Assembly: GCF_020253525.1 (NCBI RefSeq)
Contig: NZ_JADCBK010000004.1
Location: 52,261-116,260, forward strand
Source: Aquidulcibacter sp.
Lineage (GTDB): Bacteria > Pseudomonadota > Alphaproteobacteria > Caulobacterales > Aquidulcibacteraceae
Direction of reading: 5' to 3'
DNA: 64,000 bases
A model generated the notes under the pieces. The model made no database searches, was not told where the DNA came from, and was given only the letters and a program-made list of their open reading frames with translations. The translations under genes were made by a program, and so were the position numbers. Positions 25,818 through 45,357 of this stretch are shown here, in pieces (position 1 is the stretch's first letter; each line of letters opens with the position of its first letter).

Positions 25818-25838
25818 CTTAGCCCCAGTTGACGCAGT

Positions 25839-25855
25839 AAAATTGGTATGCACTT
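25839..25855. promoter_or_regulatory. Candidate FadR-type operator (autoregulatory), AAAATTGGTATGCACTT
   Basis: Left half matches the UxuR/ExuR-type AAATTGGTAT; shares a core with the sites at 33668-33862. Confidence 0.55.
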
Positions 25856-26051
25856 GTGGCATGAATCAATTGATTTTGCAATCGGTTCACCCCCCTTGCG
25901 GGCCGGGTCCGCTGCGCGCTGACGCACTTTCTGGCACTCTGTTCAGTACGCGGTCTTACGCAGCCATCGAAAGATTGGAGGGGTGCCTGGTTTTGGCCTA
26001 AGGACCAGTCAGACCCCAACTTGAGCCGTGCGAGGGCGAAGATCAGGAGAG

Positions 26052-26990: not shown

Positions 26991-27009
26991 CGTGTGACCT
27001 CCCAGTCGA

Positions 27010-27765: not shown

Positions 27766-27796
27766 GTCGTTTCCTGCTTCATGATGTTCGGAGGGA

Positions 27797-29074
27797 TTAG
27801 TGCGCCGAGCGCGGCTGAAGGGGTTTGATCTCGCGACACAGCACGAAAACGGCCAGAACCGTCAGCACGGCGAGTGCCGCGCCCACGGCAAATGCAGGCG
27901 CATAGCTGTGGATGGTGATGACGGGGATGAGGAAATTGAGACCGACAACAGCAAGCTTTGCTGCCGTGCCGGCATAGCCGGCCAAGGTGCCAATCGAGCT
28001 GCCCGCATAAAAATCGCTGGGCAAGGTTTGAATATTGCCGATAGCTGTTTGGAAGCCAAACAAAATGGCTGCCATCAGCAAGACAGCGACGGTAGGCGTT
28101 GCCGCTTTGATCGTTGCCAATAGCGAGACCAGCATGATGGCCCCACCCAGCGCGATCACAAACTTGCGCGACTTATCGACCGACCAGCCAGCCTTAATTC
28201 GGTTTTGCGCCAAAAGTCCGCCAAACCAGGCGCCGAACATGGCACCAATATAAGGCACCCACGCATAAAGCCCGATGTCCTTGACACCAAAGCCATAGGT
28301 CTCCGCCAGATAGAGAGGCAGCCAACCGATGAACAGCCACCAGATTGGATCAATAAAGGCCGATGCGAGGATAACGCCCCAGCTTTCCTTGCGCGATAGG
28401 ATTTCAGCCGAACCCGGGGCATAGCTCGCCTCGGTGTTTGATTGGGTATCGCGTTGGCCCTCTAAAATGAAGCGGCGCTCCTCGGCGCTGATCCATGGAT
28501 GGGCGTCCGGGCCTGCCTTATAAATCATCAGCCAAGGCACCAGCCACAAAAATCCGAGGGCACCGATTACGATAAAGGTGGCTTGCCAGCTGCCGAGAAA
28601 GACAAAGAGAAAGGCGATGATGGGTGCCGAAATGATACCGCCGACCGCAGCGCCAGAATTGAAGATGCCTTGGGCCAAAGCCCGCTCATTAATGGGGAAC
28701 CATTCAGCATTTGCCTTGGTGGCACCAGGCCAATTCCCTGCTTCAGAAACACCCAGTAGCGCGCGGAAAATAGCAAAACTGGCAAGACCATTCGCAACCG
28801 CATGGAGCATGGTTGCTAAAGACCAGACCGCGATCGAGAGAACAAAGCCAAGCCGTGTCCCAATCTGGTCGAAGATACGCCCAAAAATGGATTGGCCGAA
28901 TGCATAGGCAAAGGTGAAGACGTTCAGAATGATGGCATAATCGGCTTTGGTCAGGCCCAATTCCTTAGAAATCTCGGGCCATAGGAAACCAAGCGCACCG
29001 CGATCAATGTAATTGATGACCGTTGCCAAGGCGACCAAGCTGACAATCAACCAACGTAGCTTGCCAGTCTTCAT
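27797..29074 (-). CDS. MFS transporter, ExuT/ACS (hexuronate) family
   Basis: INYIDRG, EAGNWPG, AQGIFNSGA, FIDPIWW motifs. Confidence 0.9.
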   Translation of the reverse strand: MKTGKLRWLIVSLVALATVINYIDRGALGFLWPEISKELGLTKADYAIILNVFTFAYAFGQSIFGRIFDQIGTRLGFVLSIAVWSLATMLHAVANGLASFAIFRALLGVSEAGNWPGATKANAEWFPINERALAQGIFNSGAAVGGIISAPIIAFLFVFLGSWQATFIVIGALGFLWLVPWLMIYKAGPDAHPWISAEERRFILEGQRDTQSNTEASYAPGSAEILSRKESWGVILASAFIDPIWWLFIGWLPLYLAETYGFGVKDIGLYAWVPYIGAMFGAWFGGLLAQNRIKAGWSVDKSRKFVIALGGAIMLVSLLATIKAATPTVAVLLMAAILFGFQTAIGNIQTLPSDFYAGSSIGTLAGYAGTAAKLAVVGLNFLIPVITIHSYAPAFAVGAALAVLTVLAVFVLCREIKPLQPRSAH

Positions 29075-29171
29075 GATTGCACCGCCACAGAAATAGCCGA
29101 TCCCAAAGATCTGCCGTGAGGCTTCCCGGGCCCGGGTTTCCGGCGGCGCGCGACAAAGGGGTATGTTTCGC

Positions 29172-31316
29172 TCATTTTAGAACTATCCTTGCGACTGGGC
29201 CGGCCCAAGACAGTTCATGCCCGGCAAATTGGATGGAGTGGCGCTTCATCGGATCGGGTGCGTGCGCCACAGCGACCGCGACTTTCACCCCTGCCCGCGT
29301 GGTGAGAATGGCGACATCTGCCTCGCCAATGGTTGCAGCCTCGATGGAAGCGATTTGGCTGCGACTGGCCGTGACCCGCTCGCTATCTGGGTCATAGCTG
29401 CCATGGCCCTCAAGGACTCCGGCAAACAAGCTATCGGCCGCACCTTCGAGGCGTTGGATGATCATAGGCTCGCGGCGCAAATTAAAGTTTGGATCGCCTG
29501 CACCGCTTTCGGCCAGGATAACGCTGCTGCCTGTTTGCGGGACCCAGTGCCACGTATGAAACCGGGTTTGATTTTGCCACGTTATGAAGGGCTTCTGCGG
29601 TGTGCTGGCGACACCGTCGACCCATATGTGCTGATAGCCAGCACCTTGGCCGAGAACTGGCCTTACCTCTGTATTGACCTTAAACTGGGGGCCAAGCTCC
29701 ACGATATGGCCCTGATAATGCAGCGGCAGATCATAGCGATGCTGGCTTGTAGACCGCACACGCAGAAGGTCTACCACCACCCGCTTGTCTAATCCGGGAA
29801 CCGCGACCAAGGCGACGGCGCGGGTCATGGTTACGCCCGGATAGGCATTGGCTTCCCGTCCGACCGAAATCGAGAAGTCTTGCGAGGCGCTAAACAGCAC
29901 CTGCTCGCCCGCATGCTCTTCTGCGGGCTCTAGTTTGCCATCAAAATGGCTGCGCCCATCGACCACCAACACATTATGGGCAATCGATTGTTTCGCCCAG
30001 CTTTCGTTTTCAGGAAGGTAACGGCCGCCATATTTGGCCTCGACATTATGGAAGCGCGCGGCGCCATAATCGCTGACAATTTCGCGACCTTCATCGAAAT
30101 AAAGCCAGTTGAGCCGGTCAAAATGGCCATGGCCCATCCCTTGGGACGCGCTTTTGGTAACCAGCAATTGTCCCGTTTCAGAATCGCCAGACCGGATGAG
30201 GGCGACTGCACCTGACTTGCCATCGGCTCCATCGCGCAACAGACGCGAGCCGAAAGGAAATGGTCGTGCCTTTCCGGCCGCGAGATCGGCTGCCACCATC
30301 TTGCCTTCGGGCGAAAGGGCAACCCGTCCTTGCCAGTGTGCGACGGACAAAAGGGCGGGATCGCGCGATTGCGCATAAGCGATGGCAACACTCTGATAGA
30401 GCTCTTCTGTATTGAGGCTCTTTTCTTTCAAGGCATCATTAAAGGGCACAAAATGGCCGCGATAGGTCAAATCAACCGCAGTTTGGACCGTCTTCACAAG
30501 GACGCCGTCGCGCCGCTTGAAGATGCCAACTGCGGGATCATAGCGTTCGATGGAATTGGCAAAGACCATGAAGGGCCACAGCGCATAACGCTGATAATAG
30601 CCCCCTTCGGCATAATAGCCGTCGGGCGACAACAAATCGTCGATCTGTTTTAGAAAGCCAGCCGATCCATCTTTTCGCGATCCTTTTAGGGCGCGGTCGA
30701 CAAGGTCGCGATCGCCCAACACATAGCCCGTCATGCCAACGCCAGCCGTTGCCCAAGTTGCATGATTGTGGATCATATCAAAGGTTTTGACGCTCTCGAC
30801 CGATAGAAAGGTTGCCATCTGACGGAACAGGGGGTCGATGCGCGCGCGGTCCTGTGCCGACAGATCCGCGCGGATTAGTTCATAGCCCTGAATGCCATTC
30901 ACCAGCCAAACAGCATCGTTCAAAACCTGCCAGAATAGCTTGCCATAGCGCTGATCATTAGACCGCGCTGGATGGGGCCCTAGTGTCGGATAAAGTGCGG
31001 CATAGGCCAGCAACATATCGCGCGCATAATCGCGATATCGGCGATCACCTGTAAGTTTATAAAGCTGGCCTGCTTCATAGAGCGCGCGGTAATTGCGCTT
31101 GTGCTGCTCATGGCTTGCGCCGCCGCCCGGGTCCTTTGGCTGGGGTACATAAATCCCCGCCTGCATCATCTCCTCAAGAAAGACACGAGATTTGGCCACT
31201 TCTGTCGCAAACAAGTCCGGCGCAGCTTGGCCCGCTGGCGCAGGCTGGGCGGCACTTGCACCGGGTATGGCGAAGGTGACGGAGGCGAGAAATGCCATGG
31301 CGATTAGATTGCTCAT
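29172..31316 (-). CDS. PL17-type oligoalginate lyase (alginate lyase + heparinase II/III-like domains), exported
   Basis: Signal peptide; HNHATW, GYYAEGGYYQRYA, GMGHGHFD, YLPENESWAKQSIAHN. Confidence 0.92.
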   Translation of the reverse strand: MSNLIAMAFLASVTFAIPGASAAQPAPAGQAAPDLFATEVAKSRVFLEEMMQAGIYVPQPKDPGGGASHEQHKRNYRALYEAGQLYKLTGDRRYRDYARDMLLAYAALYPTLGPHPARSNDQRYGKLFWQVLNDAVWLVNGIQGYELIRADLSAQDRARIDPLFRQMATFLSVESVKTFDMIHNHATWATAGVGMTGYVLGDRDLVDRALKGSRKDGSAGFLKQIDDLLSPDGYYAEGGYYQRYALWPFMVFANSIERYDPAVGIFKRRDGVLVKTVQTAVDLTYRGHFVPFNDALKEKSLNTEELYQSVAIAYAQSRDPALLSVAHWQGRVALSPEGKMVAADLAAGKARPFPFGSRLLRDGADGKSGAVALIRSGDSETGQLLVTKSASQGMGHGHFDRLNWLYFDEGREIVSDYGAARFHNVEAKYGGRYLPENESWAKQSIAHNVLVVDGRSHFDGKLEPAEEHAGEQVLFSASQDFSISVGREANAYPGVTMTRAVALVAVPGLDKRVVVDLLRVRSTSQHRYDLPLHYQGHIVELGPQFKVNTEVRPVLGQGAGYQHIWVDGVASTPQKPFITWQNQTRFHTWHWVPQTGSSVILAESGAGDPNFNLRREPMIIQRLEGAADSLFAGVLEGHGSYDPDSERVTASRSQIASIEAATIGEADVAILTTRAGVKVAVAVAHAPDPMKRHSIQFAGHELSWAGPVARIVLK

Positions 31317-33529
31317 TGGAGGCGGTTGTCCCGAATTTCGGCGCGCAATGGCCCTTTGAAATAAAGTTCCGACACGACGGGGGGTGGCGATGCAGCAAAC
31401 TCATTGTTTGTGATGCGTGTTGAAGGCTCACCCACGCTGTGGATCACCTCTAGTTTGGCGCTGCGGAGGAAGCGGTTTTGAGAGATGCGCGTCACCTGAA
31501 CACCAGAAAGACGCACACCACCGCTCTCTGTGATCTGGCTGTCCAGCAGGCTAAATCGTGGGCCAAATGTGCTCTCGTCCGTGCCTTGACGCAGCACATC
31601 GGCAATCATGCCAACGCGGGTGAGTGACAGCTGTTCGAACTCGATCTCTTCGACAGGATAGAGCCCGGCATTGCCCCGTTCAGAGGTGGCCGCAAGAACC
31701 GCCCCACTTAAGTCCGTGACCTGCGTCTTGGCGATCCGGACTTTTCCGGCAAAAGTCGCCGGGGTTGTTGCGATCAAATCAAATTGCGTTGTATGCGCCA
31801 GATCGAGGAAAAGGCAGTCTTCAATGTCCACGACATAGTTTGTCAGCATGGTGCGGGGTGAAGATCGGATCACAGCATTGCCGACTGCAGAGGGCGCTTC
31901 CTTGCCAGAGATGGTGAGGCCCCGAAGGGTCAAGCTGCCACCCTCTTCCATCACAAATAGCGTCGCCGCGCGAAAGGAGATGTGTGCGCCAGCCCCTGAG
32001 ATCGTCACATCACGGCGCACGGGCAGAGGCTCATCAAGGGTGAATGTGCCTTTGCCAAGCTGCAAAACATCGCCGTCATGCGCGTTGGCAAGCGCTGCAA
32101 CCAGCGCGCCGGAGGTTTGAATCGTGACGGTTCGACTTGGCTTTGGCTGAACCGCTGATTGTGATGCAGGCCGGTACCAAGCAGGACCAACAGCGCTGCG
32201 CTTAGGTGCCACAAGTTGGCGAGACGCACCAAGGTCTGCCATTGCTTGGTTGCGCGGATAAAGGAGCCCATTGGCCCCACGCCGCAGTGCAACGGGCTTT
32301 TGCTCAAACCCAACACCATCCGGCACACTTATATTGGTAACATTGCCCGCAAACTGGATGCCCGTTGTGGGCGCATCGACGCGAAACGGCGCATGCGACA
32401 AATCAGTCACCACAAGATTTTTGGTGACCTTTACCCCCTCGGGCGCGGCAGAACGCTCAGCGCTTGCCCCGGCGCCAAACAGAATGGAGACCGGATTGAC
32501 GAGAGTGTTATTGGCAATTTCGCCACCCACAACTTGATGATAGCGATTGATGACCGAATTGGGCACGCCATTCATGATGGAGAGCGCGGCGGTGAAATTC
32601 CCGCCTGCCAATCCCTCCAAATAATTGTTTCGCACGGTTTGATCGCGATTAATGACCCGGATCCCGCCTGTGTTGGCCTCGCCCATGCCCAGGAAGATGT
32701 TTGATTCCACAAGATTGCCATTGCCATGGCGCAAAACCACAGCACCTTGCGAACGCAAAAACAGATTGCGCCGGATCGTATTGCCGCCTGACTTGATCGA
32801 GATAACCTCTACCTCACCATCACAGCGCTCAAAGATATTGTCTTCAATCACGGTGCCAGAGGGGCTGAGCGATTCCTCGCTCGTGCCAATTCTTAGGGTC
32901 TCGCCGCCATTGGAGCCAAGAACCGGGCGCGGGCCAAAATAATTGTGGTCTAGGCGAATATTGTTGTCGAGCGGCCAGCCGGGCATGCGGATCACCACAA
33001 ACATCGCACCCAGATTCTGCTTGCCTTCAAAATGGGAGTGGTCGAACCGGATATTGCGACCATAGAGCGCAACCCAATGATCTTCTTTGCGACGGTCTGG
33101 ATTGCTGAAGCCGTCGATGACAATGCCTGTTAAGCGCGCATTCTCGGCCCACCGATTGCCAATCCGGGTCACGATGGCGGCTTCGCCCAAAGGCTGGCCC
33201 GAACGGAAGACCAAATCCTTTACAACCAAATGTCGCCCAGCAAGGCGGAGTGCCGACGCGCCAGAGACGATGACTTTACCGGGTGTCATGGCCTTCAAGA
33301 TGATTGGCTTGGCGGCCGTTCCTTGCGCGTCAAACTGGATGTCCACATCGCGCCAATCCCCATTGGCGAGAATGATCTGATCGCCCGGCTGAGCTGCCTT
33401 GATCGCGGCCTGCATCTCTGCAGAACTTCGCACCACGATATCCCGCGCGAGGACCGGCGACCCGAAAGCCATAAGAAAGGCAGCAAGAATGGCAGGATAG
33501 CGGCGCATGGCTATCCCTGGCTCACGCAA
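31313..33529 (-). CDS. PL6 alginate lyase (chondroitinase-B-like beta-helix, two-domain)
   Basis: GSNGGETLRIGTS, EVISIKS, LRHGNGN, NRYHQV; true start may be ATG 33508. Confidence 0.92.
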   Translation of the reverse strand: MREPGIAMRRYPAILAAFLMAFGSPVLARDIVVRSSAEMQAAIKAAQPGDQIILANGDWRDVDIQFDAQGTAAKPIILKAMTPGKVIVSGASALRLAGRHLVVKDLVFRSGQPLGEAAIVTRIGNRWAENARLTGIVIDGFSNPDRRKEDHWVALYGRNIRFDHSHFEGKQNLGAMFVVIRMPGWPLDNNIRLDHNYFGPRPVLGSNGGETLRIGTSEESLSPSGTVIEDNIFERCDGEVEVISIKSGGNTIRRNLFLRSQGAVVLRHGNGNLVESNIFLGMGEANTGGIRVINRDQTVRNNYLEGLAGGNFTAALSIMNGVPNSVINRYHQVVGGEIANNTLVNPVSILFGAGASAERSAAPEGVKVTKNLVVTDLSHAPFRVDAPTTGIQFAGNVTNISVPDGVGFEQKPVALRRGANGLLYPRNQAMADLGASRQLVAPKRSAVGPAWYRPASQSAVQPKPSRTVTIQTSGALVAALANAHDGDVLQLGKGTFTLDEPLPVRRDVTISGAGAHISFRAATLFVMEEGGSLTLRGLTISGKEAPSAVGNAVIRSSPRTMLTNYVVDIEDCLFLDLAHTTQFDLIATTPATFAGKVRIAKTQVTDLSGAVLAATSERGNAGLYPVEEIEFEQLSLTRVGMIADVLRQGTDESTFGPRFSLLDSQITESGGVRLSGVQVTRISQNRFLRSAKLEVIHSVGEPSTRITNNEFAASPPPVVSELYFKGPLRAEIRDNRLQ

Positions 33530-33667
33530 TGGGTGTTGGGGCAGGCCTCATTCCGCATATCCAATGGATCACGGGCAACCTCGCCCCGAATGATCATAGA
33601 CCGCATGTGAAAGCCCCCCACCAGTTCACGAAGATGTAATAAGCATCCGGTCCAATGTGTCAACCAG

Positions 33668-33862
33668 TTATTCATACCAATCTTTTGAAGGTGGCCGACA
33701 TATGGACGCCCCTTAAAGAGCAAGACAGACGATTTTCGTCATTTTACCCATAGATATCTGCCATTTTGCCGTGAATTATCTCCATTTCTGTGGGGAATTG
33801 GGGAATTGCAGGCCTAAATTATATACCAAATTCTCGATAAATTATGCAGATTGGCATGAATT
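33668..33862. promoter_or_regulatory. Divergent PL6/TBDT control region with three candidate FadR-type sites (about 33668-33683, 33816-33832, 33848-33862)
   Basis: Read in one orientation: AGATTGGTATGAATAA, AATTTGGTATATAATTT, AGATTGGCATGAATT; TTGACA follows at 33868-33873. Confidence 0.55.
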
Positions 33863-33931
33863 ATTGGTTGACAATAATCGGTAAGGTGGGCAACGAGCGA
33901 TAAAGGCAAAATTCACGGGGAGGACAATTTC

Positions 33932-36900
33932 ATGTACAGCGGAGCCAAATTTGGCAATCGGAGTCGTTTAAACAGCCGATTGAGCATCGCACTTTTAAGT
34001 GGAACCGCCGCCATCGCGAGCCCCGTGTTTGCGCAAAATGCCACCAGGCCTGCGACACCACCGGTGGCACAAGATGCCGCTCCTGCTAAGGAAGTTGAAC
34101 AAATCGTCGTGGTTGGTATCCGCAGATCGTTGCAGAGCGCCTTGGGCGAAAAGCGCAATGCCGACAGCCTGATCGAAGTCATCAAAGCCGAAGACATCGG
34201 AAAGCTGCCCGACCAAAACCTTGCCGAAGTGTTGGAAAACGTCACGGGCATCCAAATCACCCGCTCCGCCGGTGTTGGCAGTGCGGTCCAAATCCGCGGT
34301 ACAGATGCAAACCGGACCGAGATTAATGGTGTTTCCACGGTGTCGTCCGGCGCCAGTCGGTCTGGCATTAGTTTCGAAGACTTACCCGCCGCACTCATTG
34401 CCTCGGTTGAAGTCACCAAGGTCCCAACCGCTCAAACCATCGAAGGATCGGTCGGGGGTACGATTAACCTGCGCACCATTCGCCCACTCTCGCTCAAAGA
34501 GCCTTTGATTTCGGCGCGAGTCCAATCAGAAACCAGCGACCTTTCGAAATCAACGCTGCCTCGTGTTTCTGCAACCCTGGGCCGGCGCTGGGATACCAAT
34601 ATTGGCGAAATCGGTTTGGTCATCAGCGGCAGTCATGCTCGCCAAGATGTTGCCTCTTTCAGCCCTCGCGTGGATCGCGACGCCATCGTGCTGCCGGGAT
34701 CAGGCCCAAGCGCCCAATCCTTCCCATTTCTTCGCATTCAGTTCTTTGATCAGGAATTGATCAATTACGAATATGACACCAAGAATTATACCGGCGCTTT
34801 TGAATGGAAGCCCAATGATCGGCTCAAATTCTATTTTGACGCCACCCTCAACGACCAGCAGCGAACCCAAGAAAGTACGCGCGTCCAGATTTCTGGTACC
34901 GCGTCGGGTACGGTTGTGAATGCCACGAACAACACATCTTTTGAGACGGTCAATTGGGGTTCCCTCGATGGCCCGAATGGACCGATTAATCTCGGCACCG
35001 TTCAAGCCGCGTTGACCGGCACGATTGGCGTTGGTGTTGAAACCAACGGCACCATCGACCCCAACTTGCGCACCTCAAGCAATACCGGTGCACGCCTAAC
35101 CGAAAGCCGGGTGTTTGCCTTTGGTAGCGAATGGGAGCCAACAGACCGGCTCAAAGTTCGGGCAGAGGGGTCGATTTCGACGTCAAAGTCTGACTTTCCA
35201 AACTTTTCAACCACGCTGGATTTCATCAACCCTCTGGGACCACAGCCTTCTTTCGGTCGCTCGATTGATAACGGGGTTCCCACAGAATTTGATTTGCGCG
35301 GCGGTATCCTGCAATTTGGCCTGAACGCGGCCAGCCCGATTTCACCCACATCGGCCATGATGCTTAATCCAGCCAATTATCGGCTTCAGCAAGTCACCCA
35401 AGGGGCCAATAAAACCGATAATGAGGAAAAGGCAGCGCGCTTTGATCTGAGCTATGACGCATCCGACAGGATCAAATACGTCAAATCCGTCGACTTCGGC
35501 TATCGTTGGAACCGCAATACGGCCATCAACAACGTCTTCACCAACAATGTCACATTGACGAACCCAACGACCCATTGGAACCGTCCGTCGGGTGATCGTT
35601 TTGCCAGCATCCTGGTTCCAGGGCCCAGCAATTTTAATGATGCCGACGGACGCCGTCTCTATTTCCCGAACTTCTTGATCATCGACGGAGCCCTTTCGTT
35701 CAGTAATCCCACCCAAGTGTTGGATGCGCTCAACACGGCCATTACTGCAGCCAATGCCGCGCGCACCGTCGGCGGCGCAATCGCGCCTTTGACCGTGCCG
35801 ACAGAGTCCGCATCCGGCTTCTTCACAATCAATGAAACGACCAATGCCGCCTATCTTCAGGCCAATTTCGAAACCGAGATTGCGGGCAAATCGGTGACGG
35901 GGAATGCCGGGGTTCGTTATTTGGACACCAAGATTTCCTCGATCGGCAATAATGTGTCCAACAATACCTCTGGCGGCCAAATCGTGGCCGACAGCTCTTA
36001 CAGCTTCTGGCTGCCCCGCCTCAATGTCGTGACAGAGGCAGCCGACCGCTTCTTCATTCGCGCAGGTATCGCTCGCGATATTCGGCGGCCCGACTTTGAC
36101 AGAATGTCGACATCGGTTTCGTTTGGCACCTCGCCCAATACCCCCGTTCCCGTTGGCAATCCCGATCTGGTTCCAGAAGCTGTCTGGTCCTATGACCTCT
36201 CAGCAGAATGGTATTTTGCGCCTTCCAGCTTGATCAGCGTCGGTTTCTTCCACAAAAGCCGGACCAATCTGTTCGCGCAACGCCAAGAAGATCCCGCACC
36301 GAACTTGGTTGGATCGCAGCTGAATATCGATATCACGCCTCCTTGCGAAGGCGGGGGTATCTACAACCCGATTGCCCAACGCGGCATCAACAACCCAACC
36401 CCCGGCACGGGCATCTGCGTTCCCCTCTCTTCGACCTTCAATGTCAGTGGCTCTACCACCCAGACCGGGGTCGAAATTGCGTTCCAGCATGACCTTTCCG
36501 CCTATGAAGAGACCTTGGGTTTTGCGTCGGGCTTTGGCTTTATTGGCAATTTCACCTATCAGAAGACGGGTGGTTCAGCGAAGGAATATCGGGCCGCAGA
36601 TGGTCCACGCAACGTCTTCACCCTCTTGGGCTTCCCCAACTCAAAAGACCGAATCACGCTCACCAATCTGTCGAACTATGCCTATAATGCGACGGTGTTT
36701 TACGACAAATACGGCTTGAACGCCCGCGTCCGCTATACGTGGCGATCCAGCTATGCGACGGATGATTCCTTCTTCTTCGGGCTTCCACGCATCAATGGCG
36801 ACCGAGGCCAGCTGAATGCCAGTATCAATTACGACATCACCGACAACATCAATATCGGCATCGAAGGGATCAATCTCTTACGGTCGGACCAACGGCAGTA

Positions 36901-36982
36901 TTGCGTCAACAATAATGCTTTGCTTTGCTTCCAAGGCCTCACCGATCGCCGCTTGACTGCCGGTCTCAATGTGAAATTCTAG
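33932..36982 (+). CDS. TonB-dependent receptor (oligosaccharide uptake)
   Basis: VVVGIR TonB box, AEDIGKLPDQNLAE plug, C-terminal GLNVKF; GGAGG RBS. Confidence 0.96.
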   Translation: MYSGAKFGNRSRLNSRLSIALLSGTAAIASPVFAQNATRPATPPVAQDAAPAKEVEQIVVVGIRRSLQSALGEKRNADSLIEVIKAEDIGKLPDQNLAEVLENVTGIQITRSAGVGSAVQIRGTDANRTEINGVSTVSSGASRSGISFEDLPAALIASVEVTKVPTAQTIEGSVGGTINLRTIRPLSLKEPLISARVQSETSDLSKSTLPRVSATLGRRWDTNIGEIGLVISGSHARQDVASFSPRVDRDAIVLPGSGPSAQSFPFLRIQFFDQELINYEYDTKNYTGAFEWKPNDRLKFYFDATLNDQQRTQESTRVQISGTASGTVVNATNNTSFETVNWGSLDGPNGPINLGTVQAALTGTIGVGVETNGTIDPNLRTSSNTGARLTESRVFAFGSEWEPTDRLKVRAEGSISTSKSDFPNFSTTLDFINPLGPQPSFGRSIDNGVPTEFDLRGGILQFGLNAASPISPTSAMMLNPANYRLQQVTQGANKTDNEEKAARFDLSYDASDRIKYVKSVDFGYRWNRNTAINNVFTNNVTLTNPTTHWNRPSGDRFASILVPGPSNFNDADGRRLYFPNFLIIDGALSFSNPTQVLDALNTAITAANAARTVGGAIAPLTVPTESASGFFTINETTNAAYLQANFETEIAGKSVTGNAGVRYLDTKISSIGNNVSNNTSGGQIVADSSYSFWLPRLNVVTEAADRFFIRAGIARDIRRPDFDRMSTSVSFGTSPNTPVPVGNPDLVPEAVWSYDLSAEWYFAPSSLISVGFFHKSRTNLFAQRQEDPAPNLVGSQLNIDITPPCEGGGIYNPIAQRGINNPTPGTGICVPLSSTFNVSGSTTQTGVEIAFQHDLSAYEETLGFASGFGFIGNFTYQKTGGSAKEYRAADGPRNVFTLLGFPNSKDRITLTNLSNYAYNATVFYDKYGLNARVRYTWRSSYATDDSFFFGLPRINGDRGQLNASINYDITDNINIGIEGINLLRSDQRQYCVNNNALLCFQGLTDRRLTAGLNVKF

Positions 36983-37004: not shown

Positions 37005-37039
37005 GCCGGGGGTAGCAAGCCGCAACCCCCGGCTTTTTT
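37005..37039 (+). terminator. Rho-independent terminator of the TBDT
   Basis: GCCGGGGGT/ACCCCCGGC stem followed by T6. Confidence 0.85.
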
Positions 37040-37183: not shown

Positions 37184-37197
37184 TCTAATATATTAGA
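37184..37197. promoter_or_regulatory. Perfect palindrome TCTAATATATTAGA, candidate GntR operator
   Basis: 14-bp palindrome abutting the ATG at 37198; related TTAGTATATCAA at 37165-37176. Confidence 0.6.
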
Positions 37198-38004
37198 ATG
37201 CAAAGCATGGAATCCCTGACCTTTACCGTACGACCCCTGTCCGACGTGCTGAAAGCCGAAACGCTTGGCACGGAGGGTTCGCTTGTTGACCGAATTTACG
37301 CCGTCCTGCGCCGGGCCATTATTGACCTGTCGCTGCCGCCCGATCTGCCGCTTGTCGAGCAAGAAGTTGCTGCCGCCTTGCAGACCAGCAAGACGCCAGT
37401 ACGCGAAGCAATTATCCGCTTAGCGCGTGAGGGGCTGGTCGAGGTTAAGGCAAAGAGTGGCAGCTATGTGACGCCCATCAGTATTGAGCGCTATTTGGAA
37501 GCCTGTTTTGTGCGGATGCAGTTGGAGGTGGGCTGCGTTCGCAGATTAGCGTCGCGGCGGATATCCCCGGCCGACCAAGTGTTGATGCGGGCCTTTATTG
37601 CTGAGCAAGAAGCTGCCTTTGCCGCCAATGATGATGCACGATTTTTTGCCGCCGATGAGGCGATGCACCACGGCCTGTTTGAACTGGCAGGCTTGCCCGG
37701 TGTCTGGCGGACGATGAACCTCGCCAAGGCTGAGCTGGACCGCGTGCGCCATTTGAAAAGGCGCTTCGGCAATCGTCAGCGTCAACTTGTCATCGAGGAG
37801 CACAAGGCCCTCATTGAAGCCATCATCGCAGGCGATCCTGCCGCCGCCGAACGGGCGTTGCTCGACAATATTGGTGCTGTCGAAGAAGAAATTGCGGCGC
37901 TTGCACGTCATCCAGGACTGTTGCGCACCATCGAAGACCTGAACGCCCTTGTCGCCATCGAACATCGTCTACGCGGCGGGAAAACCTCTAGAAAGGCCAG
38001 CTGA
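37198..38004 (+). CDS. GntR-family FCD regulator (RspR/YdfH-like)
   Basis: IYAVLRRAII, SKTPVREA HTH; FVRMQLE, DEAMH, EEH motifs. Confidence 0.9.
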   Translation: MQSMESLTFTVRPLSDVLKAETLGTEGSLVDRIYAVLRRAIIDLSLPPDLPLVEQEVAAALQTSKTPVREAIIRLAREGLVEVKAKSGSYVTPISIERYLEACFVRMQLEVGCVRRLASRRISPADQVLMRAFIAEQEAAFAANDDARFFAADEAMHHGLFELAGLPGVWRTMNLAKAELDRVRHLKRRFGNRQRQLVIEEHKALIEAIIAGDPAAAERALLDNIGAVEEEIAALARHPGLLRTIEDLNALVAIEHRLRGGKTSRKAS

Positions 38005-39830
38005 TGGATCTCAACATCGTCATTATTGGCGTCTATTTTATGTTCCTACTGGCCATCGGCTGGATGTTTCGGAGCATGACCAGCAACACAAGCGACTATT
38101 TCCGCGGCGGCGGCAATGTGTTGTGGTGGATGGTGGGGGCTTGTGCCTTCATGACCCAGTTTTCCGCTTGGACGTTCACAGGGGCGGCCTCAAAAGCCTA
38201 TAATGACGGCTTTGCGATTGTATTCCTCTTTTTGGCAAATGCGGTCGGCTATTTCTTCAATTATCTCTATTTCGCCCCCCGTTTCCGGCAAATGCGGGTG
38301 GTCACCGTGGTCGATGCATTACGTTTGCGCTTTGGGAAGACGAATGAGCAGGTTTTCGCTTGGGTGAGCATGGTCACCACCGTCCTCTCCGCCGGCATTG
38401 CCATCAATGCGCTCGCCGTGATCGCTTCGTCTTTGGGCGGATTTGGGATGGAAGTGACAATCATTACAACCGGGCTTGTGATCATTGTCTTGTCGGTTGT
38501 GGGTGGGGCTTGGGCCGCCATCGCGGCCGATTTCTTCCAGATGATGATTGTGATGGTCGTGACCGTTTCTTGCGCGGCAGTCGCGCTCTATCTGGGCGGC
38601 GGCCCGCAGCAAATCATCGACAAATTCCCTACCGACTTCATCAGTGGCACCGAGCTCAACTATATGAGCATCTTCTACATCTGGTGCTTCAGTATCTTCT
38701 TAAAGCAGATTGGGTTGACCAATAATCTGCTCTATTCCTATCGCTATTTGACGGCGAAGGATTCCAATCACGCGCGCAAAGGGGCCATACTTGCCTGTGT
38801 GCTGATGTTGATCTGCCCGCTCCTGTGGTTTTTGCCGCCCTGGTATATGGCTGGCGCGGGGGTCGATTTGCAGACGATGTTCCCCGAACAAGGGGCAAAC
38901 TATTCCGAAGCCTCCTATCTCGCCTTCGTCAAACTCTATATGCCCATTGGCATGGTCGGGCTTTTGCTGGCGGCCATGTTTTCAGCGACCATGAGTTCGA
39001 TTGACACTGGGCTAAATCGCAACGCGGGCATTTTCGTCAAAAACTTCCTCCAGCCCGTACTCTTTCCGAAGATGAGCGAAGCCGCTCTCATGCATGTATC
39101 GAGAACCGCATCCATTGTTTTTGGGGTGCTGATTGTTTCGGTGGCACTCTTTATCAACTCCCTGAAAGAGCTCAGCCTTTTCGACGCGATGCTCTATCTC
39201 AGCGCGCTTCTGGGCTTTCCACAAATCATCCCAAGCTTCCTCGGCTTCTTCATTCGCCGCACGCCAGACTGGGCCGCATGGGCAACCATTCTGGTTGGTG
39301 CGATCGTATCATGGGTCGTCGGTGGCCTGATGGAGCCGGCCCATATTGAGCGTCTCTTTGGTCTGACGACACCGTTTACAGATCGGGAGTGGACCGATCT
39401 GGTCGTCGCGATCAGCCTGATTGCCCATGTCGTCATCACGGGCGGGTTTTTCTGCCTAACCACCCTTTTCTACAAAGGTCTGCCGCCAGAGCGCGAGGAA
39501 GCCGTCACGCGCTTCTTCACCAATCGGGACCGACCCCTGATCAAGGCAGACGGGGACCATGTGCACCTTGACAACCACCAGCGCGTCCTGATCGGCCGCA
39601 CGGTCGGGATTGCGGGTATCTTAGTTATGGCCATGATGGCCCTGCCCAACCAGCTATGGGGACGGGTGATCCTGTTGATCTGCGGTGCCGGTGTGCTTGG
39701 GGTCGGGGCCCTCTTGGTCCTCTCGACGGTGCCAGTGCCTGAAGGTCAAGATCGGCCAGAGGCTGATGCCGCCGATGACAAGGACCTAGCTACACCCGCC
39801 ACGGCCACATCACAGGATTCTGCGCGATGA
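38004..39830 (+). CDS. Sodium:solute symporter resembling the Vibrio oligoalginate transporter ToaA
   Basis: SDYFRGGG..LWWMVG..AFMTQFSAWTFTGAA; many TM helices; 1-bp overlap with the GntR stop. Confidence 0.82.
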   Translation: MDLNIVIIGVYFMFLLAIGWMFRSMTSNTSDYFRGGGNVLWWMVGACAFMTQFSAWTFTGAASKAYNDGFAIVFLFLANAVGYFFNYLYFAPRFRQMRVVTVVDALRLRFGKTNEQVFAWVSMVTTVLSAGIAINALAVIASSLGGFGMEVTIITTGLVIIVLSVVGGAWAAIAADFFQMMIVMVVTVSCAAVALYLGGGPQQIIDKFPTDFISGTELNYMSIFYIWCFSIFLKQIGLTNNLLYSYRYLTAKDSNHARKGAILACVLMLICPLLWFLPPWYMAGAGVDLQTMFPEQGANYSEASYLAFVKLYMPIGMVGLLLAAMFSATMSSIDTGLNRNAGIFVKNFLQPVLFPKMSEAALMHVSRTASIVFGVLIVSVALFINSLKELSLFDAMLYLSALLGFPQIIPSFLGFFIRRTPDWAAWATILVGAIVSWVVGGLMEPAHIERLFGLTTPFTDREWTDLVVAISLIAHVVITGGFFCLTTLFYKGLPPEREEAVTRFFTNRDRPLIKADGDHVHLDNHQRVLIGRTVGIAGILVMAMMALPNQLWGRVILLICGAGVLGVGALLVLSTVPVPEGQDRPEADAADDKDLATPATATSQDSAR

Positions 39831-41050
39831 AAATCACCGACGCCAAAGTTTTTGTCGGGGGCCCCGGCAAAAACTACGTAACCCTCAAAATATACACCGA
39901 CCAAGGCATTTATGGCCTAGGGGATGCTACCCTCAACAATCGGGAAACTTTGCCCGCCAAATATTTAGAGGATTATTTGATCCCGTGCCTGATCGGGATG
40001 GACCCGCGGCGCAGCGAAGATATCTGGCAATATTTCTATCGCAGTACCTATTTCCGGCGCGGACCCATTACGATGTCAGCCATTGGAGCCATCGACATGG
40101 CTCTGTGGGACATTAAGGGAAAGATCGCGGGCCTTCCGGTCTATGATTTGCTGGGCGGCAAGTCACGCGATGGCGCGCTTGTCTATGCGCATGCTACCGG
40201 CAGCGATCTTGATCAGCTTATTGATTCCATGTCCTATTATCGAGAACAGGGCTATACGGCGATCCGCGTTCAATGCGGCATTCCGGGTATGCCAACGCCT
40301 GGTTATGGCATCGCTGGCAAGGACGAAGATGCCCGCCATTATATCACAAAATATGGCGCCCTGCCCGACTTGGAGATTTGGGATACAGGCAAATATCTGC
40401 GCTATATGCCCAAGGTGTTTGAGCGGCTTCGTGCTGAGTTTGGGGACGAACTAAAGATCCTGCATGATGTCCATCACCGCCTCCTGCCTCGTGAGGCTGC
40501 AGCTTTCGCGAAAGAAGTCGAACCATTTGATCTCTACTGGCTTGAGGACCCAACCCCAGCCGACGACCAGACCAGCCTGCGCCTGATCCGCCAGCACAGC
40601 ACGGTTCCCATCGCCATAGGCGAGGTGTTCAACTCGCTGTGGGATTGCCGCCAGATGATCGAAGAAGAATTGATCGACTTTATCCGTATCGCAGCCACCT
40701 ATGGCGGTGGCATCACACATGTGCGACGCATTGTCGATCTGGCTGCGATCCATCACGTCCGAACTGGCTTTCACGGCGCGCCCAGCCATTCGCCAATCTC
40801 GATGGCGGCGCAAGCACATCTCAATGCTTGGGCCCCGAACTTCGGGATACAGGAATATCTGGTGCTGGGGACGGAAGCTTGCGACGCACTATTCCCCTCC
40901 GACCATCATTATGCGGAGGGTGAGTTCCATGTCAGCGACGCGCCGGGACTAGGTGTCGATTTCGATGAAAAGGAGGCCGCGAAATATGCGTATTCACGTG
41001 GCTATCACCCCGTCGTGCGCCTGACAGACGGGACGATGTGGAATTATTGA
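39827..41050 (+). CDS. Enolase-superfamily sugar-acid dehydratase, ManD/RspA subgroup (divergent)
   Basis: LHDVHH, WLEDP, IGEVF metal ligands; DMALWDIKGK; PNFGIQEY; RL.DGTMWNY C-terminus. Confidence 0.9.
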   Translation: MKITDAKVFVGGPGKNYVTLKIYTDQGIYGLGDATLNNRETLPAKYLEDYLIPCLIGMDPRRSEDIWQYFYRSTYFRRGPITMSAIGAIDMALWDIKGKIAGLPVYDLLGGKSRDGALVYAHATGSDLDQLIDSMSYYREQGYTAIRVQCGIPGMPTPGYGIAGKDEDARHYITKYGALPDLEIWDTGKYLRYMPKVFERLRAEFGDELKILHDVHHRLLPREAAAFAKEVEPFDLYWLEDPTPADDQTSLRLIRQHSTVPIAIGEVFNSLWDCRQMIEEELIDFIRIAATYGGGITHVRRIVDLAAIHHVRTGFHGAPSHSPISMAAQAHLNAWAPNFGIQEYLVLGTEACDALFPSDHHYAEGEFHVSDAPGLGVDFDEKEAAKYAYSRGYHPVVRLTDGTMWNY

Positions 41051-41078: not shown

Positions 41079-41792
41079 ATGTTGAGCCCTGAAACCAAAG
41101 CAACCCTTGAACGCACCAGCACCGCCAGCCTTGCGACCATGCTGTTTAAGCGGGGCCTGCGCAACCAATTCATTCAAGGTGTGCAACGCTTGGGTGGCCG
41201 CCGTCCGCGCATGGTTGGCCCAGCCTTTACGCTTCGCTACATCCCCGCGCGCGAAGACTTAAACCCGATCGAGGTGTTTCGCGACCCCAATCATCCCCAG
41301 CGTCGGGCTGTCGAGGAGGTGCCGACGGGCCACATCCTGATCATGGACTGCCGACAAGACGCAAGCGCCGCCTCAGCCGGATCAATCCTCCTCACGCGCT
41401 TACAGGTGCGCGGGTGTGGCGGGGTGGTGACTGATGGCGGTCTGCGCGATGCCGATGAAATCTCTGACCTCACCATACCCGCTTTTTGTGCGCGTCCTTC
41501 CGCGCCAACCAATCTTACCAAACACCAAGCCGTCGACATCAATGTGCCCATTGGCTGTGGTGGGGTTGCGGTTTTTCCGGGCGATATTGCGGTTGGAGAT
41601 GGCGACGGGGTTGTGATCATTCCGGCCCATTTAGCCGAAGAAATCGCCGCAGAAGCCCGAGGCATGGAGGCGTATGAGGCTTGGGTAGTTGAGCAGGTCA
41701 AGGCTGGCGCATCGATCATCGGCCTCTACCCGATGAATGAAGAAACCCGCGCGCGTTACGAGGCCGAACACCCAACTGAAAACAAACGCTAG
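41079..41792 (+). CDS. RraA/HMG-aldolase-like protein
   Basis: GPAFTLRY, GVVTDGGLRD, CGGVAVFPGDIAVGDGDGVV. Confidence 0.85.
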   Translation: MLSPETKATLERTSTASLATMLFKRGLRNQFIQGVQRLGGRRPRMVGPAFTLRYIPAREDLNPIEVFRDPNHPQRRAVEEVPTGHILIMDCRQDASAASAGSILLTRLQVRGCGGVVTDGGLRDADEISDLTIPAFCARPSAPTNLTKHQAVDINVPIGCGGVAVFPGDIAVGDGDGVVIIPAHLAEEIAAEARGMEAYEAWVVEQVKAGASIIGLYPMNEETRARYEAEHPTENKR

Positions 41793-41864
41793 CGCTTCAG
41801 GCCCTAAGGCAGATAACATCTGAGCCATCAGCAAAGATCAAACATGTGCTGGCTGGAGGTTTGC

Positions 41865-43118
41865 GTGGTCGACCGCATAATGGCTATCTCTCGACGCGGC
41901 TCTCTGGGCGTTGCAGCTGCCGGTACCCTTGGTCTTGGAGTACCCACCGCTGCCGCCACGGCCGAATCAGGGGTCGTTCCGGGCCTTGAAGTCCTGTTAG
42001 GGCCAAAGCGGGCGCTGTTGGCGGGCAAGCGGGTGGGTCTCATCACCAATCCAACGGGCGTGACGCGCGGGCTTGAAAGCGCGGTTGATCTGATGGCGCA
42101 AGCGACCGACTTTAAGCTTGCCGCGCTGTTTGGACCCGAACATGGGGTGCGCGGCGATGCGCAAGCTGGCGCTGCTGTTGCCGATCACCTCGATGCGCGC
42201 ACGGGCTTGGCCGCCTATAGCCTTTATGGTGCCACCCGCAAGCCGACGCCTGCCATGCTGGCAGGTCTCGATGTGTTGGTCTTTGACATTCAAGACATTG
42301 GTGCCCGCTATTACACCTATCCTTGGACGCTGGGCCTGGTCATGCAAGCTGCTCGCGAAGCCGGGATTGGCGTCATTGTGGCCGACCGGCCCAATCCAAT
42401 TGGTGGGGACAAGGTTGAAGGCCCCGTGCTGGACCCCGCTTTGGCAAGCTTTGTTGGGGCCTATCCCATCCCGGTGCGCCATGGCCTGACGATGGGCGAG
42501 CTGGCCCTGATGATGAATAAGGACTTCGCCATAGGCTGTGACTTGACCGTGGTGACGTGCACCACCTGGCGACGCGGGAAGGATTTTAGTCAGACAGGCC
42601 TGCCATGGGTGCCGCCTTCGCCCAATATGCCCACTTTGGATACGGCCTTCCTGTATCCGGGAACCTGCCTGATCGAGGGGACAAATCTGTCGGAAGGGCG
42701 CGGCACAGCCAAGCCATTTGAGCTGATTGGCGCGCCCTTCATCGATGCGCCTGCGCTGGCAGAGCGGCTAAACCAGCGCAAATTGGCCGGGGTACATTTC
42801 CGCCCCGCATATTTCACGCCGACCTTCTCAAAGCATCAAGGCCAGCTTTGCGCGGGCGTACAAATCCACCTGTTGGACCGCGCGAGCATGGCACCCGTGG
42901 ACGTGGGCCTCACACTCCTGCTCGAGGTCGCAAGCCTGTATGGCCAAGATTTTTCCTTCTTGCCCGGCAATCCGCCGTTTTTCGACAGGCTGGCAGGATT
43001 GTCCTGGCTGCGCGATGCAATTGTGGCGGGGGAAAGTCTCGAAAGCATCCACGCACGCTGGCAGCCTGAACTTGAGGCTTTCAAGCGCAAACGATTGGAT
43101 TGGCTCTTATATCGCTAA
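41865..43118 (+). CDS. namZ: Exo-beta-N-acetylmuramidase (DUF1343), Tat signal
   Basis: SRRGSL twin-arginine; ITNPTG, FGPEHG, FDIQDIG, DRPNP, SEGRGT; GTG 41865 follows GGAGG. Confidence 0.88.
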   Translation: MVDRIMAISRRGSLGVAAAGTLGLGVPTAAATAESGVVPGLEVLLGPKRALLAGKRVGLITNPTGVTRGLESAVDLMAQATDFKLAALFGPEHGVRGDAQAGAAVADHLDARTGLAAYSLYGATRKPTPAMLAGLDVLVFDIQDIGARYYTYPWTLGLVMQAAREAGIGVIVADRPNPIGGDKVEGPVLDPALASFVGAYPIPVRHGLTMGELALMMNKDFAIGCDLTVVTCTTWRRGKDFSQTGLPWVPPSPNMPTLDTAFLYPGTCLIEGTNLSEGRGTAKPFELIGAPFIDAPALAERLNQRKLAGVHFRPAYFTPTFSKHQGQLCAGVQIHLLDRASMAPVDVGLTLLLEVASLYGQDFSFLPGNPPFFDRLAGLSWLRDAIVAGESLESIHARWQPELEAFKRKRLDWLLYR

Positions 43119-44466: not shown

Positions 44467-44550
44467 GCCCGCGACCGATCTGGCCTGCTTGGCACGGAAT
44501 AAAGGGCAAAACCCTTGCATCCCAGACCCCGCTCAGACTATCGAAGGGGA

Positions 44551-45357
44551 ATGAGCATTCAACTAGCCATAGCCGGGGCTGCCGGTCGCATGGGTCGGGC
44601 ATTGATTGCCGCGGCAAGCGGCGAAGCTGACCTTACCATCGTTGGCGGGAGTGAGCGCGCTGGCAGCGCCGCCCTAGGTGCTGATCTTGGCATCGTGGCC
44701 GGTGGCGATGCCTTGGGTGTCGCATGTGTTGAAAGCCCGCTTGCAGCCGCCCAAAGCGCTGACGTCTGGATTGATTTCACCACGCCGGCGGCCTCGCTTG
44801 CAGCATTGGCTGCCCTGAAGGCTTCAGGCGTAAAAGCCATCATTTTGGGCACAACGGGGTTTGAGCCAGCTCAAGAAGCCCAGATTTCTGAAGCTGCCCA
44901 ACACTTTTGCCTGGTGCGCAGCGGCAATTTCTCGCTCGGCATCAATCTCTTACTCGGTCTTGTCAAACAAGCCGCCGAACGTCTGGGCCCCGAGTGGGAT
45001 ATTGAGATTTTTGAAGCCCATCACCGCCGGAAACTCGATGCGCCGTCGGGCACAGCCTTGATGCTGGGTCAGGCAACAGCCAAGGGCCGCGGGGTATCTC
45101 ACACCGATGTTGCCACGTTTGACAGACATGGCGCGACAGCCGCCCGAAAGCCGGGAGAGATTGGCTATGCCGTCGCCCGGGGTGGCGGCATTATTGGCGA
45201 GCATGAAGTGATGTTTGCCAGCGATGAAGAAGTCATCCGCTTCAGCCATTCAGCCCTCAATCGCACCATCTTCGCCAAAGGTGCCCTCGCCGCCGCCCGC
45301 TGGGCCGCAGGCCACGGCCCCGGCCTTTATGACATGTCGGACGTGCTGGGGTTGTAG
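44551..45357 (+). CDS. dapB: 4-hydroxy-tetrahydrodipicolinate reductase
   Basis: GAAGRMG, DFT, GTTG, EAHHRRKLDAPSGTA, FAKGA. Confidence 0.97.
   Translation: MSIQLAIAGAAGRMGRALIAAASGEADLTIVGGSERAGSAALGADLGIVAGGDALGVACVESPLAAAQSADVWIDFTTPAASLAALAALKASGVKAIILGTTGFEPAQEAQISEAAQHFCLVRSGNFSLGINLLLGLVKQAAERLGPEWDIEIFEAHHRRKLDAPSGTALMLGQATAKGRGVSHTDVATFDRHGATAARKPGEIGYAVARGGGIIGEHEVMFASDEEVIRFSHSALNRTIFAKGALAAARWAAGHGPGLYDMSDVLGL

Follow-up and report, generated by a model that had tools for sequence, protein, structure and literature searches.

A ManD-subgroup dehydratase clade with a replaced barrel-loop motif in marine alginate loci and its possible role in the catabolism of C6-oxidized acid sugars

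The DNA analyzed here (the window) is a stretch of 64,000 nucleotides from Aquidulcibacter sp., and its subject is a gene for an enolase-superfamily dehydratase of the D-mannonate dehydratase (ManD) subgroup, located at positions 39827 to 41050 on the plus strand and assigned to a marine clade named here after its motif, HGAPSHSP. The gene is the third in a row of four on the plus strand, comprising a GntR/FCD regulator (37198 to 38004; Pfam GntR and FCD domains), a sodium:solute symporter (SSS; 38004 to 39830; Pfam SSF), the dehydratase (from 39827), and an RraA-family protein of 237 amino acids (41079 to 41792; Pfam RraA-like), with junctions that either overlap or, between the last two genes, measure 28 nt. 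The ATG of the dehydratase open reading frame (ORF; 407 amino acids) overlaps the stop codon of the symporter gene, and the dehydratase is predicted to be translationally coupled within this transporter-enzyme operon. Orthologues of the regulator (55%) and of the symporter (71%) occur in an equivalent locus, L119; the solved structures nearest to the symporter are SiaT and vSGLT, and it is the probable importer of the dehydratase substrate. Upstream, a perfect 14-bp palindrome, TCTAATATATTAGA (37184 to 37197), abuts the ATG of the regulator gene as a candidate operator, preceded by a terminator-like hairpin (37017 to 37035) of the upstream TonB-dependent receptor gene. That receptor gene, on the plus strand, closes an alginate utilization locus (25050 to 36982; Pfam and NCBIfam) whose minus-strand genes encode GntR, KdgK, a DehR-like short-chain dehydrogenase/reductase (SDR), an MFS transporter, PL17, and PL6.

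Both enolase-superfamily domains (Pfam MR_MLE_N and MR_MLE_C) were found in the dehydratase, and an AlphaFold2 model built from a 40-sequence alignment (predicted local distance difference test, 93.8) displayed the two-domain fold of an alpha+beta capping domain and a (beta/alpha)7beta barrel. Foldseek comparison with the crystal structures of ManDs (2QJJ, 3V3W, 4FI4, and others) gave template modeling scores of 0.92 to 0.97 at 51 to 54% identity, and the top solved relatives were D-mannonate dehydratases, including 4E4F and 2QJJ (E value of about 1e-154). In the ManD subgroup, an Arg-Tyr dyad, a His, and an Arg stand in for the Lys and His-Asp catalysts of other enolase-superfamily subgroups. 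The catalytic roles of the ManD residues have been set out for 2QJJ (PMC4570537). Translation of the ORF recovered all of the residues that a first-pass annotation of this DNA had listed as retained, namely, the metal ligands, the His of DVHH, and the loop Tyr, in the segments LHDVHH, YWLED, IGEV, and PGYGI. Specifically, the Mg2+ ligands D214, E240, and E266 (ends of barrel strands 3 to 5), the dyad R147 (end of strand 2) and Y160 (following loop), H216 (two positions past the first metal ligand), and R287 (end of strand 6) are conserved. In an alignment of 201 ManD-subgroup sequences, which included 54 clade members and 87 classical ManDs (47 to 68% identical to the query), these residues, together with H316, were invariant in both groups. 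Considering the modeled fold and these catalytic residues, we place the dehydratase in the ManD subgroup.

The NCBIfam ManD equivalog (NF043051) separated these sequences into tiers. The dehydratase scored 646.6 bits, above the cutoff of 550, and the clade as a whole scored 641 to 657, in comparison with 739 to 746 (about 742) for classical ManDs and 405 to 431 for distant members, leaving a gap of about 90 bits between the clade and the classical enzymes. Since the clade scores exceed the equivalog cutoff, named clade members are labeled "D-mannonate dehydratase ManD" or "D-galactonate dehydratase family protein" in the databases. Their partners carry the label "RraA".

The segment HGAPSHSP (residues 316 to 323; 40772 to 40795, plus strand) lies in the loop after barrel strand 7 and stands where classical ManDs have HG(A/P)(T/S)D(L/M)SP, while LNNRET (residues 36 to 41; 39932 to 39949, plus strand) lies in the capping domain in place of LNGRE(L/M/K). 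The aligned segments of the Novosphingobium aromaticivorans enzyme (NaManD, 2QJJ) and of a Pectobacterium ManD read HGATDLSP or HGPSDLSP, together with LNGREL, and the substitutions relative to NaManD are T315P, D316S, L317H, G38N, and L41T. Translation and alignment with the 87 classical ManDs thus bore out the first-pass reading of HGAPSHSP in place of HG(A/P)TDLSP. The Asp at the position of Ser320 was present in all 87 classical sequences, within the motif HG(A/P)(T/S/E)D(L/M/I)SP, and was also kept by many distant subgroup members (35 to 42% identity), whereas GFHGAPSHSP was found in 54 of 54 aligned clade members. The reading of LNNRET in place of LNGREL held for the window protein, and LNGRE occurred in 85 of the 87 classical ManDs, but residue 38 varies within the clade (N, T, or C, with the classical G in one member only); judged from the alignment, HGAPSHSP is therefore a firm clade signature and LNNRET is a softer one.

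In total, 21 positions split the 54 clade members from the 87 classical ManDs: F17Y, V43P, H50Y, I63S, W76F, E173I, P174T, Q281E, H292Y, A303V, D320S, L321H, A329Q, D333N, M345L with an inserted Val, V355L, H358S, L383E, L394H, and the C-terminal W407Y. Across 31 clade loci, each of the eight residues of the motif was encoded by two to four synonymous codons, indicating that the motif is held by selection rather than by recent shared descent. In the model, the loop that joins barrel strand 7 to the helix after it is made up of residues 314 to 322, among them the switched residues 319 to 321. Other switched positions are found after strand 6 (residue 292) and strand 8 (residues 345 and 346), in the long loop that comes after strand 2 (residues 173 and 174), and in the first loop of the capping domain (residue 17). 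Given how enolase-superfamily enzymes are known to be built, the loops bearing these residues would ring the active site. The first-pass annotation ascribed to the segment a contact with the distal substrate hydroxyls and the discrimination of mannonate from gluconate, a role that it may have; what the analysis shows is its place in the loop after strand 7 and that the second residue of the motif has been altered by depositors of ManD mutant structures (4K1W, NaManD A314P; 4K2S, CsManD P317A).

Phylogenetic analysis set the clade apart from the classical ManDs. It was monophyletic in the maximum-likelihood tree (SH-aLRT of 100); its stem measured 0.64 substitutions per site, branches inside the clade were short, and classical branches were much shorter than the clade stem. 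Identity within the clade was 72 to 92%, identity to any classical or crystallized ManD reached 58% at most, and in one-genome-per-species collections identity to the query dropped from 72 to 80% (18 loci) directly to 57% or less. The best 120 matches among 5.8 billion proteins were 75 to 92% identical, and all 120 carried GFHGAPSHSP; when proteins were clustered at 50%, the clade and the classical ManDs merged into one representative (best match, 51%). The first-pass annotation had allowed that the protein might cluster with characterized members having the same residues, yet no solved ManD was more than 54% identical, and the five solved ManDs with readable alignments (4E4F, NaManD wild type and mutants, and CsManD P317A) had DLSP and not SHSP. 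Considering that the window protein lacks both the motif Asp (87 of 87 classical sequences) and the C-terminal Trp (99% of classical sequences; Tyr407 here), we did not class it as a D-mannonate dehydratase, and it is best described as a new variant within the known ManD-type kind.

The hosts of the clade are marine and include Woeseiaceae, Halioglobus, Paraglaciecola, Lysobacterales, Granulosicoccaceae, Roseobacteraceae/Paracoccaceae, Robiginitomaculaceae, and Parvularculaceae, with cultured representatives (Maliponia aquimaris, Flavimaricola marinus, Oceanomicrobium pacificus, and Halioglobus maricola) in which the question of function is directly testable. Within the order of the window genome, the clade was detected in 6 of 201 genomes and, within its own genus, in one of nine, the window genome only. 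All six of these genomes encode a PF05426 alginate lyase, which occurred in 40 of the 201 genomes across the order sample and in none of nine other genomes of the genus; as the clade-bearing genomes are interrelated, this co-occurrence is an association and not a statistical test. Two genomes carry two clade copies each.

Eleven clade-bearing genomes were checked for both classical ManD and UxuA, and one or the other was present beside the clade gene in eight of them: classical ManD in four (G040, G055, G110, and G201) and UxuA in four (G120, G203, G204, and G205). Neither was found in the remaining three, including the window genome (G000). In G040, a genome of the same order, the clade copy is 270 kb distant from the classical ManD, which belongs to a polyuronate locus (L223 and L224, G040:C1:1533000-1562000) that also encodes KdgK, KduI, a TRAP transporter, two PL5-like lyases, and two proteins of about 490 amino acids that are UxaC- and UxuB-like by size only. 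The only UxaC of the window genome lies in another locus (L207, G000:C109:27000-46500) of pectin or galacturonate type, where UxaA, a UxaB-like gene, GH43, a TonB receptor, LacI, and KduI cluster with it but UxuA and UxuB are absent.

These distributions bear on one explanation of the gene, that it still encodes a D-mannonate and/or D-gluconate dehydratase making KDG (2-keto-3-deoxy-D-gluconate) for the nearby KdgK, the motif change being neutral or a tuning of efficiency. An SDR or a Gfo/Idh/MocA enzyme would first reduce mannuronate or guluronate to D-mannonate or D-gluconate, or mannose would be oxidized to mannonate. Such an enzyme would be expected to pass the equivalog cutoff and to keep every catalytic residue, as this one does; it would fill the place of the UxuA and classical ManD that the window genome lacks, and KdgK in the window and Eda in the genome could process its product. 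Moreover, stereochemical reasoning indicates that the reduced alginate monomers would be exactly the two known substrates of the ManD subgroup, and in two loci (L006 and L118) the dehydratase is accompanied by a D-mannose-isomerase-like AGE protein, an SGLT-like symporter, and a Gfo/Idh/MocA enzyme that, among characterized proteins, is closest to aldose or inositol dehydrogenases. We nonetheless consider this explanation unlikely: the replaced Asp is invariant in classical ManDs and common even in distant subgroup members, its replacement is fixed under selection, and 8 of the 11 genomes retain a classical ManD or UxuA as well. The sole UxaC of the window genome sits with UxaB- and UxaA-type genes of the altronate route, so that no source of mannonate is evident, and the coupling to the RraA-family gene described below would be left unexplained.

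To describe the genomic partners of the clade, gene neighborhoods were tabulated by tblastn over the 31 clade loci, which fell into three layouts. In layout A, the dehydratase gene is divergent from, or preceded by, a Gfo/Idh/MocA gene, often with an SSS gene and a conserved protein of 277 amino acids; in L006 and L118 the AGE-family gene comes next, and L118 also bears an Nramp-like gene, a GntR regulator, and a TonB-dependent receptor. Layout B, represented by the window and L119, consists of GntR, SSS, an aldehyde dehydrogenase (in L119), the dehydratase, and the RraA-like gene, while in L018 the RraA-like gene is directly upstream of the dehydratase; these are the three arrangements in which an RraA-like gene lies within about 4 kb. 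Layout C, from Rhodobacterales and others, comprises an ABC sugar transporter, GntR, a MATE transporter, Gfo/Idh/MocA, and the dehydratase, with frequent additions of a PL15-like lyase, a DehR/KduD-like SDR, KdgK, a beta-hydroxyacid-dehydrogenase-family gene, KduI, and TRAP or TTT transporters. Overall, a Gfo/Idh/MocA orthologue adjoins the dehydratase in 20 of the 31 loci and a DehR-like SDR adjoins it in L005, L015, and L018; a PL6, PL15, or PL17 lyase lies no more than 10 kb away in nine loci, and L005 reads TonB receptor, beta-helix protein, PL6, SDR, and dehydratase. The clade is situated in polyuronate and alginate loci.

Two recurrent neighbors merit separate mention. The protein of about 277 amino acids always follows the Gfo/Idh/MocA-SSS pair in loci of the Robiginitomaculaceae/Parvularculaceae type (L006:14175-15008, L118:13429-14265, L022, L117, and L122); it matched no Pfam or NCBIfam family, and the ESM Atlas returned unnamed clusters only. 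The MATE gene stands between the clade dehydratase and the GntR and ABC sugar transporter genes in L007, L011, L013 to L016, L019 to L021, L125, and L221, and a MATE-family efflux transporter is an odd partner for a catabolic enzyme.

The same neighborhoods can be read to mean that the dehydratase acts on some other acid sugar, for example, an aldonate made by Gfo/Idh/MocA from an algal sugar that is 6-deoxy, 6-sulfo, methylated, or of another configuration. The commonest neighbors are indeed Gfo/Idh/MocA and the SSS symporter, with no lyase in the Robiginitomaculaceae-type loci; an aldose 1-epimerase adjoins the dehydratase in L010, the MATE exporter is adjacent in many Rhodobacterales loci, and the clade hosts are mostly alga-associated marine bacteria. 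[quoted passage not shown] Sulfoquinovose degradation by the sulfo-Entner-Doudoroff route, which was considered because of the AGE isomerase, mutarotase, aldehyde dehydrogenase, and exporter, was dropped, as the ten scanned ORFs contained no sulfoquinovosidase/GH31.

The RraA-family gene 28 nt downstream of the dehydratase is the most informative neighbor in the window operon, considering what is known of an enzyme of this family from Flavobacterium sp. UMI-01 (Nishiyama et al. 2021). In that alginate degrader, FlRed oxidizes DEHU to KDGR (2-keto-3-deoxy-D-glucarate), the RraA-family protein FlDet (237 residues) converts KDGR to alpha-ketoglutarate semialdehyde, and the aldehyde dehydrogenase FlDeg forms alpha-ketoglutarate (PMC8563752). 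FlDet is specific for KDGR and inactive on DEHU, KDG, KDPG (2-keto-3-deoxy-6-phosphogluconate), and 4-hydroxy-2-oxoglutarate, its gene adjoins that of a DEHU-producing exo-lyase, and its counterparts in other alginate degraders are 63 to 80% identical to it (PMC8563752). The window protein has the same length, 237 amino acids, and, counted by hand against the printed FlDet sequence (LC519890), was identical at 54 of the 80 C-terminal positions (about 68%) between RPSAPTNLT and IIGLYP and at 8 of 16 positions at the N terminus. As this identity over the compared segment is comparable to the range among FlDet counterparts, the window protein looks like a FlDet orthologue, that is, a putative KDGR dehydratase/decarboxylase. 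An HMG/CHA-type pyruvate aldolase, also considered for this protein, was dropped, since 3NOJ was only distantly related to it and FlDet was close.

FlDet-like proteins are rare, occurring in 5 of the 201 genomes of the order; for each of the two close copies, which are at least 75% identical, a clade dehydratase gene is located no more than about 4 kb away. Among the best 120 matches of the dehydratase and the best 120 of the RraA-like protein, 16 contig sizes (4,733 to 1,279,375 bp) were shared, which suggests indirectly that the pairing of the two genes is usual among the nearest relatives of the window gene. In addition, a Rhodobacterales genome, G203, encodes a FlDet-like protein 62% identical to that of the window (L233, G203:C15:52000-63873) together with GntR, TRAP DctP/DctQM, an IlvD/EDD dehydratase, a DHDPS-family protein, and a GarD/UxaA-type dehydratase, in what looks like an aldarate cluster built around the RraA-fold enzyme; in G204 (L234, G204:C13), IlvD/EDD- and DHDPS-type genes were the only such neighbors observed. 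FlDet-type enzymes repeatedly accompany acid-sugar dehydratases. Elsewhere in G204 (G204:C7:145063-148240), enolase-superfamily genes that are 28 to 31% identical to the query stand on either side of a more distant RraA-like gene (32% identical), a further pairing of a dehydratase with an RraA-fold protein.

Considering these results together, we propose with moderate confidence that the clade dehydratase acts by ManD chemistry on a manno- or gluco-configured acid oxidized at C6 and derived from polyuronate monomers, and that it feeds the DEHU/KDGR node. The suggestion of the first-pass annotation, a new specificity, possibly for an aldarate or another alginate-derived acid, agrees on comparative grounds with the separate, conserved clade on its long stem, the co-occurrence with ManD or UxuA in 8 of 11 genomes, and the linkage to polyuronate loci, and the aldarate idea gains support because the next gene appears to encode an orthologue of the KDGR-only FlDet. 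Two forms of the proposal may be distinguished, each doubtful when taken singly and to about the same extent. In form (a), D-mannarate or D-glucarate would be dehydrated to KDGR; by stereochemical reasoning, these acids are the 6-carboxy equivalents of D-mannonate and D-gluconate, for which ManD-type dehydration would yield KDGR. In form (b), D-mannuronate or L-guluronate, the corresponding 6-aldehydo equivalents, would by the same dehydration yield DEHU.

The ManD reaction is to be expected because the catalytic apparatus is intact, and what is given here on substrate, product, and sequence of steps is our proposal. The Arg147-Tyr160 dyad would take the alpha-proton next to the Mg2+-bound carboxylate, the Mg2+ ion (held by Asp214, Glu240, and Glu266) and Arg287 would stabilize the enediolate, and His216 would assist the departure of the beta-hydroxyl group, followed by ketonization. 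The pocket for the far end of the substrate would be rebuilt by the changes of Asp to Ser, Leu to His, Gly38 to Asn, and the C-terminal Trp to Tyr and by the loss of two more acidic residues. Under form (a), the putative FlDet orthologue would turn KDGR into alpha-ketoglutarate semialdehyde, and under form (b), DEHU would either be oxidized to KDGR or yield KDG through reduction by the Gfo/Idh/MocA partner or a DehR-type SDR.

Each form accounts for part of the evidence. Form (a) would make the window operon self-contained, with importer, dehydratase, and FlDet; together with the aldehyde dehydrogenase of L119, which completes a set of dehydratase, decarboxylating dehydratase, and semialdehyde dehydrogenase, it would mirror the classical glucarate pathway; and it would explain why three acidic residues are lost and donors (His, Asn, Ser, and Tyr) are gained. 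Form (b) would explain why a DEHU-type oxidoreductase (Gfo/Idh/MocA, SDR, or aldehyde dehydrogenase) stands beside almost every locus and would also work in genomes without FlDet. Enolase-superfamily galacturonate dehydratases may serve as its precedent: as described in the Groninger-Poe thesis of 2014 cited in PMC6353982, they convert a hexuronate directly to the 5-keto-4-deoxyuronate for which lyases are otherwise the source. These enzymes differ from the clade in belonging to other superfamily groups and in acting on galacturonate (PMC6353982).

Several observations weigh against the proposal. The dehydratase clears the ManD equivalog cutoff of NCBI, and the window genome has no second mannonate dehydratase and carries KdgK 13 kb away, both of which would fit a plain ManD; nor did it contain an orthologue of the Gfo/Idh/MocA partner or a close orthologue of the L119 aldehyde dehydrogenase. 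Contact of the changed residues with C5 and C6 of the substrate is presumed from enolase-superfamily architecture and from ManD structures. For form (a), 8 of 13 clade-bearing genomes contain neither a FlDet-like protein nor a KdgD above the cutoff, so that KDGR would be a dead end there, and for form (b), an extra oxidase would be needed between the operon enzymes because FlDet rejects DEHU. Under either form, saturated uronates should be scarce, since lyases release unsaturated monomers.

A further explanation, that the dehydratase has no physiologically relevant activity and is a relic or plays a structural or regulatory role, would be in line with the finding, reportedly made in the 2014 work of Wichelecki et al., that some ManD-subgroup members were inactive on an acid-sugar library. 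The catalytic and metal-binding residues are nevertheless invariant across the aligned clade, the gene is intact at every locus examined, and it lies in a transporter-enzyme operon with predicted translational coupling, so that we consider this explanation very improbable.

Among known systems, the clade resembles the ManDs of Novosphingobium aromaticivorans (2QJJ), Caulobacter, Sphingomonas SKA58, Cellvibrio, and Chromohalobacter and RspA of E. coli in fold, with 51 to 54% identity, and shares with the crystallized enzymes the Mg2+ ligands, the Arg-Tyr dyad, His216, Arg287, and His316. Unlike them, it forms a separate long-branch clade with Ser for Asp, His for Leu, and Tyr for the C-terminal Trp, has different genomic partners, and often coexists with ManDs in one genome. 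As in the FlRed/FlDet/FlDeg pathway of UMI-01, the RraA-family gene of the window belongs to an alginate locus, and an aldehyde dehydrogenase accompanies it in L119; unlike that published route, which has no enolase-superfamily dehydratase, the window operon links a ManD-type dehydratase to the putative FlDet orthologue (PMC8563752). Under form (a), the three-step logic, the transporter, and the GntR-type regulator would recall the D-glucarate/galactarate pathway (GudD or GarD, KdgD, and alpha-ketoglutarate semialdehyde dehydrogenase). In contrast to that pathway, the window dehydratase belongs to the ManD subgroup rather than to the GlucD subgroup or GarD family, the second enzyme has an RraA fold rather than a DHDPS fold, and the intermediate under form (a) would be the L-erythro isomer (KDGR) rather than 5-keto-4-deoxy-D-glucarate.

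The ManD subgroup is a standard example of how functions have been discovered in the enolase superfamily, and it would gain a new isofunctional family with a clade that keeps the chemistry but exchanges the Asp of the distal pocket. Our literature searches found no mannarate, mannuronate, or guluronate dehydratase or dehydrogenase. Whether the clade provides a lyase-independent entry to alginate-monomer catabolism is, in our estimation, an evenly balanced question: it would then include the first KDGR-forming D-mannarate/D-glucarate dehydratase or the first DEHU-forming D-mannuronate/L-guluronate dehydratase and, with the FlDet-type enzyme, an undescribed ManD-subgroup/RraA-fold route that leads from saturated polyuronate monomers, or the aldarates made of them, to alpha-ketoglutarate. 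Such a route would be widespread in marine Alpha- and Gammaproteobacteria, among enzymes now annotated as "D-mannonate dehydratase ManD" and "ribonuclease activity regulator RraA", would connect the oxidative DEHU/KDGR branch of alginate catabolism, a recent discovery, with a ManD-type dehydratase, and would point to the use of saturated uronates or aldarates outside the lyase-centered pathway. If the specificity differs, the present labels would amount to systematic misannotation in marine carbon-cycle genomes.

Finally, two observations concern the surroundings of the operon. Within the genus sample, the alginate and ManD-like block was found only in the window genome, and the distance from aroA (22566 to 23867) to dapB (44515 to 45357) is 21 kb in the window in comparison with 54 to 115 kb in four genomes of the same genus, indicating that the region between them has been rearranged; an attempt to delimit an acquired island was given up, as the GC content was flat and the aroA-dapB synteny was not simple. 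Downstream of the operon, by 51 nt, a plus-strand gene (41844 to 43118) encodes a NamZ/DUF1343-family (exo-beta-N-acetylmuramidase family) protein with a twin-arginine-like N terminus; a search of 18 other clade loci yielded no homologue, and the protein is possibly an exo-acting enzyme on acidic sugars.

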